Shown one piece after another: positions 791-31,233 of a stretch of DNA of 51,887 bases (the first letter of the stretch is position 1; each line of letters opens with the position of its first letter). The position numbers and the translations under genes are program-made. Source of the stretch: Candidatus Tayloriibacteriota bacterium (GTDB taxonomy: Bacteria > Patescibacteriota > Minisyncoccia > Phycocordibacterales > PALSA-1337); assembly GCA_903839695.1 (NCBI GenBank), contig CAIMDI010000017.1, positions 1 through 51,887 of the forward strand, in the 5' to 3' direction. Below the pieces are notes generated by a model. The model saw only the letters and a list, made by a program, of their open reading frames with translations, ran no database searches and was not told where the DNA came from.

Positions 791-857
791 ATTGTACAAC
801 ATTATATCACATATTTAATATATGAAAAATACTAAATAGATGCTAACATTGTATACA

Positions 858-2336
858 ATGAAAAACAGTGTAATACCCAAAGAAATAGTAGACATTGTTG
901 AGACGCTAGAGAAAGCTGGTTTCGAGGCATTTCTCGTTGGTGGATGTACTAGAGATATTCTGCTTGGAAGAACTCCCAAAGACTGGGACATAACCACAAA
1001 TGCTACCCCGGAACAAATAATCCCTCTTTTTGAAAAAACATTTTATGAAAACTCTTACGGTACTGTTGGTGTGGTAAATGAAAAAACAGAGGATGAGAAA
1101 TTGAGAATAGTAGAAGTTACTCCATACCGTCTTGAAAGCTCCTATACCGACCGCAGACACCCTGACGATATAAAATTTAGTAAAAGTATTAATGACGATC
1201 TTAAACGTCGGGATTTTACAATTAACGCGATTGCGGTGAGTTTATCTAAAGGGGCAATAAAAGATATAATTGACTTATTCGATGGCTTAAAGGACATAAA
1301 GGACAAAGTAATAAAAGCTGTTGGAAATGCTGACGATCGCTTCAGTGAAGATGCTTTGAGAATGATTAGGGCCGTAAGACTAGCTTCAGAAATAGGTTTC
1401 ACGATTAACATCGATACTGAAAGGGCTATAATTAGCCATTCTTCATTGATTAAGGAAATTTCTATTGAAAGAGTAAGGGATGAATTCTCAAGGATACTGA
1501 TGTCTAAAGATCCAAAGATAGGAATAGAAACCTTGGATAGGCTAAATATCCTTATAAACATCATTCCTGAACTAGTATCTGCAAAGGGTGTAGAACAAAA
1601 CCAAGCCCATTCGTATGACGTTTGGGAGCATTTGCTTAGAACACTTCAACATTCAGCAGATAAGAACTGGCCACTAGAAATACGCCTTTCTTCCCTTTTC
1701 CATGATATTTCAAAGCCAGAAACAAGAAGAATTTCACGTGAAACAAATCAATTCACCTTTTATGGACATGAAGTCGTTGGTTCACGTGTAACAAAAAAGA
1801 TTCTTGAAAGATTAAAATACCCGACAAAAACAGTAGAAAAGGTTTGTAAACTTATACGTTGGCATATGTTTTTCTCAGACACCGAGATGATTACCCTTTC
1901 TGCTGTAAGAAGAATGATAGCAAATGTTGGCAAGGAAAATATTTGGGATTTAGTAAATATTAGAATTTGCGACAGAATCGGCACCGGAAGACCCAAAGAA
2001 AGCCCTTATAGATTAAGAAAGTATGAATCAATGATAGAAGAAGCGATGATGGATCCAATATCCGTTTGTATGCTTAAAATCGATGGTAATCGCATAATGG
2101 AGGTTACACGTGTAACACCTGGACCTAAAATAGGCCTTATTTTGAATGCTTTACTTGAAGAAGTACTAGAGAATCCTAGTCTAAATACGACTGAATATCT
2201 AGAAAAAAGGGCTGTAGAATTGATGGAAATGCCGCTAGCTGACTTAGAAAAAATGGCAAATATGGGTAAAATGATGAAAAACAAATTGGAAAGTGAAAAT
2301 ATAGAGGAAATACACAAAAAATACCATGTTTCATAA
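858..2336 (+). CDS. cca: CCA tRNA nucleotidyltransferase with HD domain
   Basis: VGGCTRD...DWDITT, DLKRRDFTINA, RFSEDALRMIRA motifs; HD motifs (WEH...LFHDISK); start 858 (840 possible). Confidence 0.9.
   Translation: MKNSVIPKEIVDIVETLEKAGFEAFLVGGCTRDILLGRTPKDWDITTNATPEQIIPLFEKTFYENSYGTVGVVNEKTEDEKLRIVEVTPYRLESSYTDRRHPDDIKFSKSINDDLKRRDFTINAIAVSLSKGAIKDIIDLFDGLKDIKDKVIKAVGNADDRFSEDALRMIRAVRLASEIGFTINIDTERAIISHSSLIKEISIERVRDEFSRILMSKDPKIGIETLDRLNILINIIPELVSAKGVEQNQAHSYDVWEHLLRTLQHSADKNWPLEIRLSSLFHDISKPETRRISRETNQFTFYGHEVVGSRVTKKILERLKYPTKTVEKVCKLIRWHMFFSDTEMITLSAVRRMIANVGKENIWDLVNIRICDRIGTGRPKESPYRLRKYESMIEEAMMDPISVCMLKIDGNRIMEVTRVTPGPKIGLILNALLEEVLENPSLNTTEYLEKRAVELMEMPLADLEKMANMGKMMKNKLESENIEEIHKKYHVS
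1730..1745. promoter_or_regulatory. parS-like site 1 (AATTTCACGTGAAACA) inside cca
   Basis: 14/16 match to TGTTTCACGTGAAACA. Confidence 0.7.
1778..1793. promoter_or_regulatory. parS-like site 2 (TGGTTCACGTGTAACA) inside cca
   Basis: 14/16 match to the parS palindrome. Confidence 0.65.
2102..2117. promoter_or_regulatory. parS-like site 3 (GGTTACACGTGTAACA) inside cca
   Basis: 14-bp perfect palindrome GTTACACGTGTAAC of the TGTTNCACGTGNAACA type. Confidence 0.7.
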
Positions 2337-2342
2337 GAAACA
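2327..2342. promoter_or_regulatory. degenerate parS-like site 4 (TGTTTCATAAGAAACA) over the cca stop codon
   Basis: Perfect outer arms TGTTTC/GAAACA, 13/16 overall. Confidence 0.45.
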
Positions 2343-2356
2343 TAGTCTGCTATTGG

Positions 2357-2388
2357 TTATTCTGTTATAGGTATTTATTCTGTTATAG
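2357..2388. repeat. 14-bp direct repeat TTATTCTGTTATAG x2
   Basis: Copies at 2357-2370 and 2375-2388. Confidence 0.7.
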
Positions 2389-2404
2389 ATAATCATATTC
2401 ATAA

Positions 2405-2802
2405 ACAAAACAACCGCGCCAAGAATGAAAGGTTGCCTCGAGGTTAGTTGAGACTTCCTACAAACTGTACGCAGTTGTGTAAAATTCCACTACAAGGAAT
2501 CATTTGGGTCCACAGACCCGATTCAACGAAGGCTGACCTAACAAATTCCACAAAAGGGAGCGTTGCGTAATACTTTTAAATTAACATGATCCGGCGAGCG
2601 CCAGATATAAATTGTTTTGATGTAAAGTTATGCAATTGCTCAACTTAAGCAAAATAGGGGTTGTCTTCTCCTGTGAGAATTTCAATACCTACTTATTACT
2701 TACTACCTATTACTTATTTACTTATTACTATTACTACCCTAAATTTTGGAAGAGCTGTGATGCGACTACCCTCGGTTGAAGCCTCATCTGATCTGGTATC
2801 AT
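2405..2802. ncRNA. candidate structured ncRNA (two domains), family unknown, strand unresolved
   Basis: GC-richer than its flanks, no long ORF; multibranch domain 2410-2566 with three hairpins; nested rod domain 2586-2802 enclosing a low-complexity loop. Confidence 0.6.
2689..2736 (-). repeat. array of 14 TAA/TAG triplets
   Basis: Minus strand reads TAG TAA TAG TAA TAA G TAA A TAA G TAA TAG G TAG TAA G TAA TAA G TAG. Confidence 0.85.
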
Positions 2803-2847
2803 TGTATCAATTATAAAAGACATGTAAAGGACATTAACAATAAAAAC

Positions 2848-2856
2848 TGTGGATAA
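2848..2856 (-). promoter_or_regulatory. perfect DnaA box (TTATCCACA)
   Basis: TGTGGATAA on the plus strand, intergenic. Confidence 0.65.
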
Positions 2857-2904
2857 CTCATTTTCTTTTGTCCTTTATAAAATATATTTAAAAAATATTT
2901 TAAA

Positions 2905-3693
2905 TTAATCTAAAATTAATTCTATAGGACAATGATCTGAACCCATAATAGTGTTGAGAATACTGGCTTTTTTTGCTTTATTCAAAAGGGCAGGGGATAT
3001 GAAAAAATAATCAATTCTCCAACCAACATTTCTTTCTCTTGCAAATGTTTTCATATCCCACCATGTATATGCAGCTATTTTTTTAGGATTTGTATGTCTA
3101 AAAATATCTATATACCCATCATTAATCACTTGATCAATCCATTCTCTTTCTTGTGGTAAAAATCCTGTATGATTTTCATTTGCTTTTGGTCGTGCCAAAT
3201 CTATTTCATTATGAGCTGTATTAACATCGCCACAGAAAATAATTTCGTAACCATTTTTTCTCTGTTTATTTATATATTTTAAGAACTCATCATAAAAATT
3301 CATTTTGAAAACCAATCTTTCTGGGTCAGTACCCGCATTAGGAAAATAACAGTTAATCAGCACAAATTTGACCCCCAGTATCTTTTTATCATCGAAAAAT
3401 AGGGCTATAAATCGTCCCTCTTTATCATATTCTTCAATTCCAAAGCCGTATTCCACGTTACTTGCCTTATTTTTGGAGTAAATCGCAACACCACTATAAC
3501 CCTTCTTTTCCTTTGAATGATCAAAATATGAATGATAACCAAGTGGATTCCTGACACCAGCGTCTAATTGTTCTGGATGCGCCTTTGTCTCTTGATAGCA
3601 CATAAAATCAGGTGATTTCTGCAAAAACCAATCAAATCCACCCTTTTTTACATTTGCCCGCAATCCATTTACATTCCAAGAAATGATATTCAT
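2905..3693 (-). CDS. xth: exodeoxyribonuclease III / AP endonuclease
   Basis: SWNVNGLRA, QETK, GDVNTAH, GWRIDYF, GSDHCP motifs. Confidence 0.95.
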   Translation of the reverse strand: MNIISWNVNGLRANVKKGGFDWFLQKSPDFMCYQETKAHPEQLDAGVRNPLGYHSYFDHSKEKKGYSGVAIYSKNKASNVEYGFGIEEYDKEGRFIALFFDDKKILGVKFVLINCYFPNAGTDPERLVFKMNFYDEFLKYINKQRKNGYEIIFCGDVNTAHNEIDLARPKANENHTGFLPQEREWIDQVINDGYIDIFRHTNPKKIAAYTWWDMKTFARERNVGWRIDYFFISPALLNKAKKASILNTIMGSDHCPIELILD

Positions 3694-3730: not shown

Positions 3731-4669
3731 TTATTCACTTTTTCTGTGAAACTTTTTGTGTATTTTTCTTAATTCAGTGTCAGTAACATGTGTATAAATC
3801 TGAGTTGTATTGATATTTGCATGTCCAAGAAGCATTTGAACAGAACGTAAATCAGCCCCATTTCTCAATAAATCAGTAGCAAAAGAGTGACGAATAACAT
3901 GGGGAGTTACTTTTTTTGAAATTCCACACATAGAAGCATAGTGTTTTATTATTCTCTCAACTGAACGTGGTGTTAATCTTAGGGAATCCTTATTTTTAGC
4001 CAGTTTATCGTTTTTCTTTGCTGTAATTTGCACAAACAATGCATCGTCCATATCATCTCTTTTGTCTAAATATCTTTGAACTGCGTTTTTGGCATTTTCT
4101 GATATAAAAACCACCCGAACTTTTTCGCCTTTCCCTCGAACCGACATTTCCTCCAATTTTAAATTAATATCCCTGGGTAAAGCGCAAAGCTCAGAAACAC
4201 GAAGACCTGTGGAGAAAAATAGCTCTAACATTGCCTTATCTCGAAGACCCTTCAGGGTTTTCAAATCTGGAATATTTAGTAATCTCTCCAATTCTTCTAT
4301 TGTAATCAAGTCCAAAGACCTTTCTGGTACCTTTGCCAATTCTATTCTATCTGGAGCAAGGGAAACTATGTTTTGTCTAGCTAAATACTTCAAAAATGCC
4401 CTTAATGCTATCAAATAGTAATTCTGTGTTCTCTTTTTTAATGTAGTCGCAGCCATACCTTTTTCATTTTTTGTCTCTTGTCTGTTAAGCCAAATACGAA
4501 AATCACGCACAACTAAATCAGTTATATCCTTTGGATCTTTTATTTTGGTATGGTCAATAAAACGGCTAAGATATTGGTCATAATTCCTTACAGTATTAAG
4601 GCTTCGTCCTTTTTCAATCTCAATATACTGTAAAAATTCAGTCTTTAAAGTAGAAATATTTTGCGACAT
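3731..4669 (-). CDS. XerC/XerD-family tyrosine recombinase
   Basis: N-terminal SAM-like domain; TGLRVSEL, HVIRHSFAT, LGH...TTQIYTH catalytic residues. Confidence 0.9.
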   Translation of the reverse strand: MSQNISTLKTEFLQYIEIEKGRSLNTVRNYDQYLSRFIDHTKIKDPKDITDLVVRDFRIWLNRQETKNEKGMAATTLKKRTQNYYLIALRAFLKYLARQNIVSLAPDRIELAKVPERSLDLITIEELERLLNIPDLKTLKGLRDKAMLELFFSTGLRVSELCALPRDINLKLEEMSVRGKGEKVRVVFISENAKNAVQRYLDKRDDMDDALFVQITAKKNDKLAKNKDSLRLTPRSVERIIKHYASMCGISKKVTPHVIRHSFATDLLRNGADLRSVQMLLGHANINTTQIYTHVTDTELRKIHKKFHRKSE

Positions 4670-29380: not shown

Positions 29381-29515
29381 TTATACAGCTATTTTCTTGC
29401 GTCCTTTTGTTCGACGGCGTCTCAGAACGTTTCTTCCTGTAGAAGATTTTGAACGAACTAGGAAACCATGTGTCTTTGCTCTCTTTCTTTTCTTTGGTTG
29501 ATATGTAAATGACAT
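29381..29515 (-). CDS. rpmH: 50S ribosomal protein L34 (not in the ORF track)
   Basis: Manual translation [44 protein letters not shown]. Confidence 0.96.
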
Positions 29516-29572
29516 AGTTAGAATACTATACATCACGAGGAGAAAAAATTCAAGGACTCAAAGAAAAATTAC

Positions 29573-29648
29573 TATTCCACAGCTTATCAACATGTTTATC
29601 AAGGTTCCACAAGTTTGCTAATTTATAAACAGGTATATAATTGCTTGC
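29573..29648 (+). promoter_or_regulatory. dnaA promoter region with degenerate DnaA boxes
   Basis: TATTCCACA 29573, TTATCAACA 29584, GGTTCCACA 29603; TATAAT 7 nt before the ATG. Confidence 0.65.
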
Positions 29649-30995
29649 ATGAAAGATTATTCAGAATTATGGACACAAGCATTAACAGAAATAGAATTGG
29701 CGGTATCTAAAGCTAATTTCTCTACATGGTTCAATGATACATATATAGTCAAATCAGAAGAGGGGGTTATATTCCTTGGAGTACCAAATTCTTTTATACA
29801 ACAATGGTTATATAAGAAGTTTCACAACACAATTTTAAAATCATTAAGACAGTTAGATGAAAGTGTTAGGGCGTTGGAATACATAATCACAAAAGATTCA
29901 GACAAGAAGCGCTTGGTTGAGAAGAAGGTTCAACAAGTAAGCCCTACTATTTCTATGCCTCTTCATGATTTTTATATAGACAAAGATGACAACCTAAATC
30001 CTAGATATCTCTTTGATTCATTTGTTGTAGGGCCATTCAATGAACTTGCTCATGCAGCCTCAAAAGCTGTAGTAAAGAATCCTGGTTCAACATACAATCC
30101 ATTATTTATATATGGAAACACTGGATTAGGAAAAACCCATCTTATTCAAGCTATCGGTAATCATATAAAAAAAGATTTTCCTCAAAAGAAAGTTTTTTAT
30201 TTAACATCGGAACGTTTTGGTTCAGAATACTTTTCATCTTTGCAAACAAATAGCGCTCAGAAGTTTAAGGAGAAATATAGAAAATATGATGTTATTATCA
30301 TGGACGATGTTCAATTCTTTGCTAGTAAGGAGAAATTTCAAGAAGAGCTTTTTCACTTATTTGAAACTTTCTATCAATCAAATCGTCAATTGGTTTTTTC
30401 TTCTGATAAACATCCCAATTTCATACCAGGCCTTGAAAACAGACTAAAATCTCGTTTTGTTGCTGGAATGATTATAGATATACCAACCCCAGACCAAGAA
30501 TCAAAATTAGCCATAATTAGGGCTAAAAGCTTAAATAATAATATCGAATTAAACGAGGAAATACTTAATTTTCTTACCTTAAGTATTGAAAGTAATGTTA
30601 GAGAGATAGAGGGTACAATAAACGCAATCGCCTGCCAAACACAATTAAAAAATAGACCTTTATCTCTATTAGAAATTAAAAGTCTTATCAAAAACAATAC
30701 CAAACCTAAGAAAAATATTTCAGTTAAAGATGTTATTAAACTTATTACAGGATTTTATAATATTTCTGAAGATAGTATTTTTGATAAAACAAGAAAAAAA
30801 GAAGTTGTTAGGCCAAGGCAAATCATAATGTACATACTTCGTGAAGATTTTAATTTATCATTTCCTTCAATTGGAGAGAAGTTGGGTGGTAGGGATCATA
30901 CAACAGTTATTCATTCATGTGAAAAGGTTAAAGAGGATTTAAAAACAAATCCTATATTAATAGGGGAGATATCACAAATAAGAGCTATGTTATAA
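29649..30995 (+). CDS. dnaA: chromosomal replication initiator DnaA
   Basis: YNPLFIYGNTGLGKTHL, MDDVQF, RLKSRF, GGRDHTTVIH. Confidence 0.98.
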   Translation: MKDYSELWTQALTEIELAVSKANFSTWFNDTYIVKSEEGVIFLGVPNSFIQQWLYKKFHNTILKSLRQLDESVRALEYIITKDSDKKRLVEKKVQQVSPTISMPLHDFYIDKDDNLNPRYLFDSFVVGPFNELAHAASKAVVKNPGSTYNPLFIYGNTGLGKTHLIQAIGNHIKKDFPQKKVFYLTSERFGSEYFSSLQTNSAQKFKEKYRKYDVIIMDDVQFFASKEKFQEELFHLFETFYQSNRQLVFSSDKHPNFIPGLENRLKSRFVAGMIIDIPTPDQESKLAIIRAKSLNNNIELNEEILNFLTLSIESNVREIEGTINAIACQTQLKNRPLSLLEIKSLIKNNTKPKKNISVKDVIKLITGFYNISEDSIFDKTRKKEVVRPRQIIMYILREDFNLSFPSIGEKLGGRDHTTVIHSCEKVKEDLKTNPILIGEISQIRAML

Positions 30996-31233
30996 AACTG
31001 TTAATAATTGTGGGAAAACTGTGAAGAAAATTGTTTATCCTGTTAATAAAAAACACTAAAACAAAACAAATTAACAAAAAATTTAAATTAAAAAATACTT
31101 ATTAAATACTATGAGAATTTTATCCACAAAATCACATCAAATAATAAGCCTTAATATAAGGATATAAAATAGTTATCACCATATCCACAGGACTAATAGT
31201 AATAATAAATTATTTATATAATAATCAAACAAA
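30996..31233. other. probable replication origin oriC (dnaA-dnaN intergenic)
   Basis: DnaA boxes at 30999, 31009, 31020, 31041 (reverse), 31120 (perfect TTATCCACA), tandem 31173/31181 followed by trio-like CTA ATA GTA ATA ATA and an AT-rich tract. Confidence 0.8.

Follow-up and report, generated by a model that had tools for sequence, protein, structure and literature searches.

What is encoded in the gap between the cca and xth genes of contig CAIMDI010000017.1, a 51,887-nt stretch of Candidatus Tayloriibacteriota DNA, here called the window? The window is one contig (C17) of a source genome (G000) of 732 kb in 36 contigs. A first-pass annotation had proposed that the gap holds a structured RNA, and this proposal stands. 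Between cca and xth there is an uncatalogued, stand-alone non-coding RNA (ncRNA) gene of about 390 nt on the minus strand, and the helices of this RNA covary in 27 copies from the same genus. The description of the gap as a GC-richer block poor in open reading frames (ORFs) is also borne out: the G+C content is 0.37-0.46 across 2401-2650 versus 0.19-0.33 in the flanks (100-nt windows), and the cca-xth gap contains no ORF longer than 51 aa.

Conservation and covariation among relatives had been put forward as a check on the proposal, and both are found. In a blastn search, 2380-2830 gave a match in 27 of 36 same-genus genomes, strongest at the right-hand end, and four helix sets covary. All 20 retrieved genus loci are syntenic, with the end of cca on one side and the end of xth on the other.

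The start, end and control region of the gene are marked by the following features, listed from upstream to downstream on the RNA strand.

2869..2877, plus strand: inverted copy of a 9-mer, TGTCCTTTA (AAAGGACA on the RNA strand), operator-like, from an exact motif scan of the genome.
2848..2856, minus strand: perfect DnaA box TTATCCACA from a motif scan, separated by 13 nt from the promoter 22-mer downstream.
2813..2834, minus strand: tandem 11-mers ATGTCCTTTAC and ATGTCTTTTAT, operator-like, containing the -35 hexamer TTTACA (2823-2828).
2801..2809, minus strand: extended -10 element TGaTACAAT, from a promoter scan and the alignment; TATAAT in most relatives.
2403..2795, minus strand: the RNA, 393 nt as delimited, with the start placed by the -10 spacing and an order-wide CAGA start, and the end by the terminator.

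The predicted RNA starts at A2794 or C2795 with the sequence CAGAUC and ends within the U-tract at 2403-2410; among the genus copies its length ranges from 327 to 426 nt. The promoter, TTTACA-16-TACAAT (2828..2801, minus strand) with an upstream TG and 10/12 matches, is the sole promoter-like site that the scan finds on the minus strand. Its -35 hexamer and spacer lie inside the repeats, i.e., within the promoter 22-mer ATGTCCTTTACATGTCTTTTAT (2834-2813), and the repeat consensus is ATGTCYTTTAY. In the genus alignment the promoter region is the best-conserved part of the locus on the minus strand. The DnaA box is kept in all 20 aligned genus loci and the inverted 9-mer in the 20 syntenic ones, and the latter also occurs, as AAAGGACA, upstream in many order-level loci.

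The conserved promoter, the conserved terminator described below and an excess of G-U over A-C in the covarying helices (111 G-U cells versus 28 A-C cells when read in the minus sense) place the RNA on the minus strand. The first-pass annotation had left the strand open. The clues it gave for the minus strand, a -10 element and GGTTG followed by a T-run at about 2403-2418, were right, whereas the plus strand is not supported.

The 9-mer TTATCCACA matches the DnaA-box consensus. It adjoins the promoter, it is kept in relatives and DnaA itself is encoded in the window (dnaA at about 29.6-31 kb, 27 kb from the RNA gene), so that the promoter would count as DnaA-regulated. Known DnaA-regulated promoters include those of dnaA, mioC and nrdAB in E. 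coli and of sda and dnaA in B. subtilis. As in these, a consensus DnaA box abuts a sigma-70 promoter. However, the product here is an ncRNA, the box is joined by three copies of a second 9-11-mer, and the arrangement is order-wide.

The structure was studied in an alignment of the 27 same-genus copies (MAFFT) and in separate alignments of sub-regions. From the 5' to the 3' end of the RNA it comprises the following parts.

2759..2788, minus strand: P1, the 5' hairpin, in a boxB-like position, with the conserved loop CAACCGAGG at 2770-2778.
2666..2679, minus strand: P2, hairpin UUCUC-ACAG-GAGAA, seen by eye in the genus alignment.
2528..2668, minus strand: central rod P3-P5, with the closing helix GAAGAC-A-ACC paired with GGU-CA-GCCUUC, followed by internal loops.
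2496..2524, minus strand: P6/P7, a two-tier hairpin of GAAUC/GAUUC around GGGUC-UGUG-GACCC (2506-2519).
2411..2477, minus strand: terminator rod, closed by P8 (2470-2477 with 2411-2418), with further helices and the apical P9 inside.
2403..2410, minus strand: U-tract directly after P8, kept in 27/27 copies.

As covariation shows, the body of the RNA consists of three folded parts, namely the central rod, the UGUG hairpin with its two tiers, and the long rod of the terminator. The four covarying sets are the 5' hairpin, the central rod of about 30 bp, the two-tier hairpin and the long-range terminator helix. The eight pairs of P1 are paired in 75.7% of cells, compared with 50.5% for shuffled and 33-47% for slid partners, and all eight show compensatory change. 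The central rod (30 pairs in nine helices) reaches 85.6%, against 74.1% shuffled and 33-47% slid, where the slid-partner control is somewhat flattering since the model is a majority vote of single-sequence folds; compensatory change is found in 22 of its 30 pairs (105 cells). For the eight pairs of P8 the values are 96.7% versus 82.4% shuffled and 27-59% slid, with compensatory change in 5/8 pairs (37 cells). None of 500 shuffles matched the observed covariation score for P1, for the central rod or for P8.

In P5 of the central rod, UGCAUAACUU pairs with AAAGUAUUACGCA; the rod ends in a variable tip hairpin (2591-2604) and keeps an internal loop of about 9 by 8 nt, its largest conserved one. 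Both tiers of P6/P7 are present in 21/21 folded genus copies with diverse helix sequences, and the UGUG loop in 16/21, as judged from single-sequence folds; RNAalifold on the MAFFT alignment of that piece predicted nothing. The interior of P8 folds as a single rod of about 60 nt in all 27 copies, with the hairpin P9 (2435-2454) and its conserved loop CUAACCU (2441-2447). A helix followed directly by a U-tract is an intrinsic terminator, here an atypical one in that the helix is the base of a rod some 60 nt long, and it is missed by a simple terminator scan, which allows loops of 3-8 nt. Because the 3' strand of P8 can pair locally, we also weighed a terminator/antiterminator switch, but dropped it: the interior is one rod and there is no gene downstream.

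The motifs conserved in loops and single strands are CCGAGG (P1 loop), G[CU]UCUUU, GGGUAGUA, GGUCAG, UGUG and CUAACCU. The loops of P1 (CGAGG) and P9 (CCUCG) are complementary in 80.7% of cells versus 80.3% when shuffled, with no compensatory change. Single-sequence folding gives weak evidence on either strand, with z = -2.47 (0/100 shuffles as good) on the minus strand and z = -1.45 (10/100) on the plus strand.

Is this RNA already known under another name? Rfam 15 finds only two transfer RNAs (tRNAs) in the whole window at gathering score, only two chance-level matches in 2250-2950 at E <= 10, and nothing credible in 20 related loci at E <= 1. The search of Rfam that the first-pass annotation had named as a test therefore leaves its view intact that the RNA is not a transfer-messenger RNA (tmRNA), RNase P RNA or signal recognition particle (SRP) RNA. 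ARAGORN reports no tmRNA at the locus. Elsewhere in the genome, tmRNA (C9, 107.5 bits), RNase P RNA (C1, 116 bits) and 5S ribosomal RNA (rRNA; C20) are all found, and we rejected these three identities, as no model matches the locus and each RNA has its gene elsewhere. Searches of the literature on ncRNA, 6S RNA and SRP in the Candidate Phyla Radiation (CPR/Patescibacteria) turned up no account of the RNA. A 2026 preprint on prokaryotic noncoding space (10.64898/2026.10.21.760802) might contain it.

How widely is the gene distributed? Of 301 genomes of the order, 85 contain the promoter 22-mer (at most 3 mismatches); they cover 66 of 190 genera, mostly with a single occurrence each, while a reversed-pattern control finds 5 genomes. 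In the other orders of the class it is present in 1 of 117 genomes, in line with the suggestion that the RNA is lineage-specific. We sampled 62 order-level loci outside the genus, 30 with 1.5-kb flanks and 32 from the remaining matches. A DnaA box (at most 1 mismatch, at most 60 nt upstream) is found in 49 of the 62 and a -10-like hexamer in 53; DnaA box, -10-like hexamer and a strict boxA-like element are combined in 35. Among the 30 flanked loci, 22 are promoter units, with a convergent cca downstream in 20 and xth upstream in 18 of these 22; the other eight are something else. Outside the genus the RNA bodies range from about 185 to more than 400 nt and fold into rods followed by a terminator. 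The RNA family keeps one slot in a single order of the ultra-small Paceibacteria (CPR), after xth and convergent with cca.

The promoter motif is also seen outside this slot. At two loci from two other families (L057, G052:C1 around 238215; L098, G214:C2 around 126554), the tandem 11-mer motif precedes a tRNA gene, and it may mark promoters of stable RNAs more generally. In the source genome, the only other cluster of the TGTCYTTWA 9-mer lies at C3:11050-11400 (L125) and includes a near-consensus DnaA box. On one side of it is an ORF of 237 aa (C3:10558-11271, minus strand), on the other ftsK and, beyond that, recA. The product of this ORF has a sub-threshold DeoR-like winged helix at its C-terminus and is a candidate regulator that binds the repeats. 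The set of genes linked to the repeats, xth, ftsK and recA, hints at a DNA-damage or replication regulon.

The 5' part of the RNA contains two further elements between P1 and P2.

2745..2755, minus strand: boxA-like element, GCUCUUCCAAA in this genome and GUUCUUUGAA in most relatives.
2686..2739, minus strand: GUA-rich, probably single-stranded stretch in a boxC-like position, in which the conserved GG(G)UAGUA motif occurs twice.

At aligned columns after P1, 25 of 27 genus copies have G[CU]UCUU[UC]; by sequence the 7-mers are GUUCUUU in 13 copies, GCUCUUU, GUUCUUC and GCUCUUC in 4 each, and others in 2. The median start of the 7-mer is nt 42, and the median distance from the G of boxA to GGGU is 20 nt; the stretch from the boxA-like to the G/U-rich motif is exemplified by GUGUGUGGGUAAU in L014. 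Only in this genome is the GGGUAGUA motif expanded, by about 40 nt, into the GUA-rich stretch at 2686-2739. At the order level, 36 of 62 loci have the strict form G[CU]UC[CU]UU no more than 175 nt from the promoter, compared with about 3 of 62 expected by chance, a rough hand estimate from base composition.

These elements recall the leaders of rRNA (rrn) operons, which carry an antitermination signal for NusB-NusE (S10), NusA, NusG and SuhB. The boxA consensus is GYTCTTTAANA (PMC5725501). In rrn operons, boxB, boxA and boxC follow in this order just after the promoter, and boxA is necessary and sufficient (PMC10250234). In the leader-trailer helix, the leader strand contains boxC, UCUGUGUGGG, which in Enterobacteriaceae is separated from boxA by 18-19 nt (PMC10250234). 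NusB-NusE reads 8 nt, of which G2, C5 and U6 are critical, while U8 stacks on F122 of NusB (PMC3177189). At its core, the element of the genus copies fits GYUCUUUAANA and retains G2, C5 and U6, varying between C and U at the consensus Y position 3. The rrn order of elements is also found here, with a hairpin, a boxA-like and a boxC-like element after the promoter, although the hairpin is missing in some order-level copies. NusB is encoded at C10:32810-33199 (120.9 bits).

The likeness to an rrn leader thus consists of a position right after a strong promoter, a hairpin, a single-stranded G[CU]UCUUU and a G/U-rich motif in that order, a long, untranslated and highly structured RNA downstream, and NusB in the genome. 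By analogy, the 5' end would work like an rrn leader, as we infer. However, no rRNA follows: the unit stops at an intrinsic terminator after about 390 nt and matches no rRNA model, and the RNA is therefore not a member of the rrn leader class but rrn-like at most. It also differs in its promoter with DnaA box and tandem repeats, in a spacing unlike that of Enterobacteriaceae and in that no leader-trailer helix with the G/U-rich motif can be demonstrated. Outside rRNA operons, a boxA is found in the 5' untranslated region of E. coli suhB, likewise near the start of a non-rRNA transcript and thought to modify the elongation complex, and the leaders of CRISPR arrays carry boxA as well. In both, boxA controls a downstream gene or array, whereas here the boxA-led RNA is the whole product.

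We suggest, with a probability of roughly 0.6, that the gene makes a DnaA-gated, stable, structured RNA of an uncatalogued family, with an rrn-like leader and Nus-assisted transcription. Initiation would take place at the near-consensus sigma-70 promoter and is probably gated by DnaA together with a repeat-binding protein, a prediction made because the -35 hexamer and spacer lie inside the tandem repeats and the DnaA box and the inverted copy lie just upstream. The nascent RNA would then expose the hairpin, the boxA-like G[CU]UCUUU and the G/U-rich GGGUAGUA. Since this is the boxB-boxA-boxC order of rrn leaders, the leader would, by analogy, load NusB/NusE (S10) and other Nus factors onto RNA polymerase, and these would protect the untranslated transcript and aid its folding. 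Our working guess, held with low confidence, is that the mature RNA is a stable RNA-protein scaffold or a decoy tied to ribosome synthesis or transcription. A role as a small RNA that base-pairs with a single mRNA seems unlikely to us.

Several points weigh against this reading. Transcription is predicted from promoter, terminator and covariation. Among the 20 runs that a database search found to match 2200-3100, three RNA runs from freshwater metatranscriptomes contain 0.22-0.27 of the sampled words of that interval, which is about equal to the share in the DNA run of the same study (0.31) and speaks neither for nor against transcription. In 216 of the 301 genomes of the order, the 22-mer is not found at 3 or fewer mismatches. 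A search with the genus profile (nhmmer) against 22 order-level loci gave nothing significant (best E = 0.14), and therefore the RNA bodies are not alignable by sequence across the order; the case for their homology at that level is made by their position, the promoter, the leader and a few motifs picked out by eye. The identification of boxA draws on a likeness over 7-11 nt and on the order of elements, and the copy in this genome, GCUCUUCC, has a C at position 8, as do 8 of 27 genus copies overall. The G/U-rich motif also follows boxA more closely than boxC does in Enterobacteriaceae, where 18-19 nt separate boxA from boxC (PMC10250234). For GGGUAGUA, two candidate CCCUU partners pair in 83.7% of cells versus 82.6% shuffled and in 83.7% versus 81.7%. 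The 16S leaders of the genus use another promoter and another boxA-like sequence, AGUUUUUUGACAA, and the RNA is therefore not a copy of the 16S leader. Finally, any role given to the RNA is putative.

A more specific version of the proposal sees the locus as an rRNA-free miniature "rrn" unit. In this version, gating by DnaA and the repeat protein, loading of Nus factors and stems that resemble pre-rRNA processing stalks, one of them with the exact complement of a conserved 10-mer of 16S leaders, would couple the replication state to ribosome production; Nus factors, RNase III or the pre-16S leader would have the RNA as their decoy or chaperone, in ultra-small cells that also seem to be without an SRP system. 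We consider this rather unlikely.

The RNA could instead be the counterpart of 6S RNA or mycobacterial Ms1, i.e., an abundant rod-shaped RNA that binds and stores RNA polymerase. In favour of this, the 6S model (RF00013) has no hit in this genome and none over the cut-off in 101 genomes of the order, although this model is insensitive and detects only 5 of 14 control genomes. Like 6S and Ms1, the RNA is abundant-looking and mostly double-stranded; it has a strong promoter and long irregular rods whose shape is kept while the sequence drifts, and its central rod contains the conserved internal loop. However, it is about twice the size of 6S and matches no Rfam 6S model at E <= 10, a result to be read with the same insensitivity. 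Its ends do not pair with each other, since the 5' end forms a hairpin and a single-stranded leader and the 3' end its own terminator rod, and in place of a large central bubble there are separate domains. We therefore regard a 6S-like RNA as unlikely.

Alternatively, the DNA site or the act of transcription might be what matters, either as a DnaA-box control site similar to datA/DARS or mioC, or as a leftover rrn leader and trailer that has lost its rRNA. In favour of this, conservation is far stronger in the promoter block than in the RNA body, whose length varies from about 185 to more than 400 nt across the order, and the locus has the perfect DnaA box and the rrn-like leader. However, the compensatory changes in four helix sets represent selection on a folded RNA, and the loop motifs CCGAGG, UGUG and CUAACCU are conserved inside it. 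Further, the locus has a single DnaA box, while dnaA and the likely origin lie 27 kb away. This explanation appears improbable to us.

Another candidate role is the control of 16S rRNA maturation in trans, either by pairing with the pre-16S leader or by mimicking it. The 16S gene of the source genome starts at C20:14669, and the 5S rRNA gene lies 9.5 kb upstream on the same strand, so that the rRNA genes are out of their usual order. The 16S leaders of the genus (L106-L123; C20:14400-14668 in G000) contain a TTGACT-17-TAGAAT promoter, the hairpin ACGCCUUAAGUAAGGCG, the boxA-like AGUUUUUUGACAA and the 10-mer AAGUUAUGCA. The conserved 5' strand of P5, UGCAUAACUU (2625-2634), is the exact complement of AAGUUAUGCA. 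Of 18 genus leaders, 15 have this 10-mer 181-217 nt upstream of the start of 16S, and the 3' strand of P5 resembles that leader segment. In addition, both transcripts have a hairpin followed by a boxA-like element. However, a 10-nt match in AT-rich RNA may be due to chance, the P5 strand is already paired and has one or two changes in several genus copies, and the 16S leader of this very genome lacks the exact 10-mer. In six pieces downstream of genus 16S genes, a search for the 16S trailer found neither the motif of the 16S 3' end nor the complementary 10-mer. A role of this kind is quite improbable.

The first-pass annotation had itself offered a different picture, in which an RNA, possibly of the plus strand, folds into two domains, and a nested rod presents a repeat loop of about 55 nt to a protein or RNA partner, an idea that fails because this loop is private to the present genome. 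All the complementary segments it listed are present, its nine helices do pair in this one sequence, and the GUA-rich stretch is probably single-stranded. However, the fold mostly fails in relatives: over 62 pairs, 60.6% are paired in the 27 genus copies versus 58.7% with shuffled partners. The sole survivor of the nine helices is GGGTC/GACCC (2506-2519), identical to P7, which is paired in 80.2% of cells and has compensatory change in 3/4 pairs. ATTCC/GGAAT overlaps a strand of the covarying GAAUC/GAUUC helix, and AACTG/CAGTT a strand of the covarying long-range helix ACAACUGCG/CGCGGUUGU. The loop (2686-2739) is absent at that length in 26/26 relatives, with a short version in L002 only. As promoter, terminator and G-U excess also indicate the minus strand, this picture is very improbable.

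A very divergent SRP RNA is scarcely credible: no SRP RNA is detectable in the genome, but no protein partners are found in it either and the SRP identity was set aside for that reason, and there is no conserved apical loop like that of domain IV, the tip of the main rod being variable or missing in 8 of 20 genus copies. The searches behind this statement covered RNA with the small and large bacterial models (RF00169, RF01854), and protein with SRP_SPB and the SRP54 GTPase domain (Ffh, FtsY), none of which was found in this 100%-complete genome. The DTAGR and GxxGxGKTT/TKxD motifs occur in no ORF of the genome in six frames. In 40 relatives and 120 genomes of the phylum, SRP GTPases gave only P-loop-level matches of at most 26 bits, while 14/14 controls were positive. 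If this absence holds, it would make this a lineage without an SRP pathway.

The genes around the RNA are arranged as follows. On one side, 840..2336 (plus strand) encodes a protein of 498 aa with a PolyA_pol head, an RNA-binding and an HD domain, by these domains a predicted CCA-adding enzyme. On the other side, the xth-type gene at 2905..3693 (minus strand) encodes an Exo_endo_phos protein of the exonuclease III type (262 aa). It is followed by a Xer-type tyrosine recombinase at 3731..4669 on the same strand, and the genes converge on the RNA locus. At 2323-2346, a 10-bp palindromic hairpin spans the stop codon of cca, with a T-run after it on the minus strand, and it would act as a back-up stop against read-through from the RNA gene into cca. 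Further away in the window, dnaA has a relative of the promoter motif immediately upstream, TGTCATTTACATATC (29500-29514, minus strand), and a perfect DnaA box beside it (31120-31128); this neighbourhood (29500-31130) is probably the origin region. Elsewhere in the genome, around C36:14995-15070 on the minus strand (L126), there is a hammerhead-like core (CUGAUGA ... GAAAC) directly followed by a boxA-like GUUCUUUGAUA, and no Rfam family matches this site at gathering score.

Three other identities of the RNA locus were considered, and the first two were rejected. It is not a replication origin, having a single DnaA box and lying 27 kb from dnaA, nor a mobile repeat, given its single copy per genome and its fixed slot. 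A small ORF is disfavoured by stop-free stretches with a median of 55 aa on the RNA strand and 49 aa on the other strand of this AT-rich 390-nt region, and by irregular length differences among the genus copies.

How does the RNA compare with other large bacterial RNAs? As with OLE, ROOL, GOLLD and raiA, it is several hundred nt long, consists of many helices supported by covariation, is restricted to a lineage and has no known function at discovery. Unlike these, it has no Rfam match, occupies a fixed chromosomal slot in single copy, and has an rrn-like leader and a promoter with a DnaA box. Genomes of CPR/Patescibacteria of 0.6-0.8 Mb contain very little non-coding DNA. As the RNA is kept in one slot with a near-invariant promoter across an order of such compact genomes, it likely does something basic. 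The family would add a new class to the large bacterial ncRNAs, hardly any of which have been described from this lineage. It may also be the first example in which an rrn-type boxA leader precedes a stable RNA other than rRNA, and as an ncRNA with a DnaA-box promoter it is a rarity. Because the gene is invisible at present, the family belongs in annotation, and it opens tests of how replication, elongation control and ribosome biogenesis are coupled in these uncultured cells.

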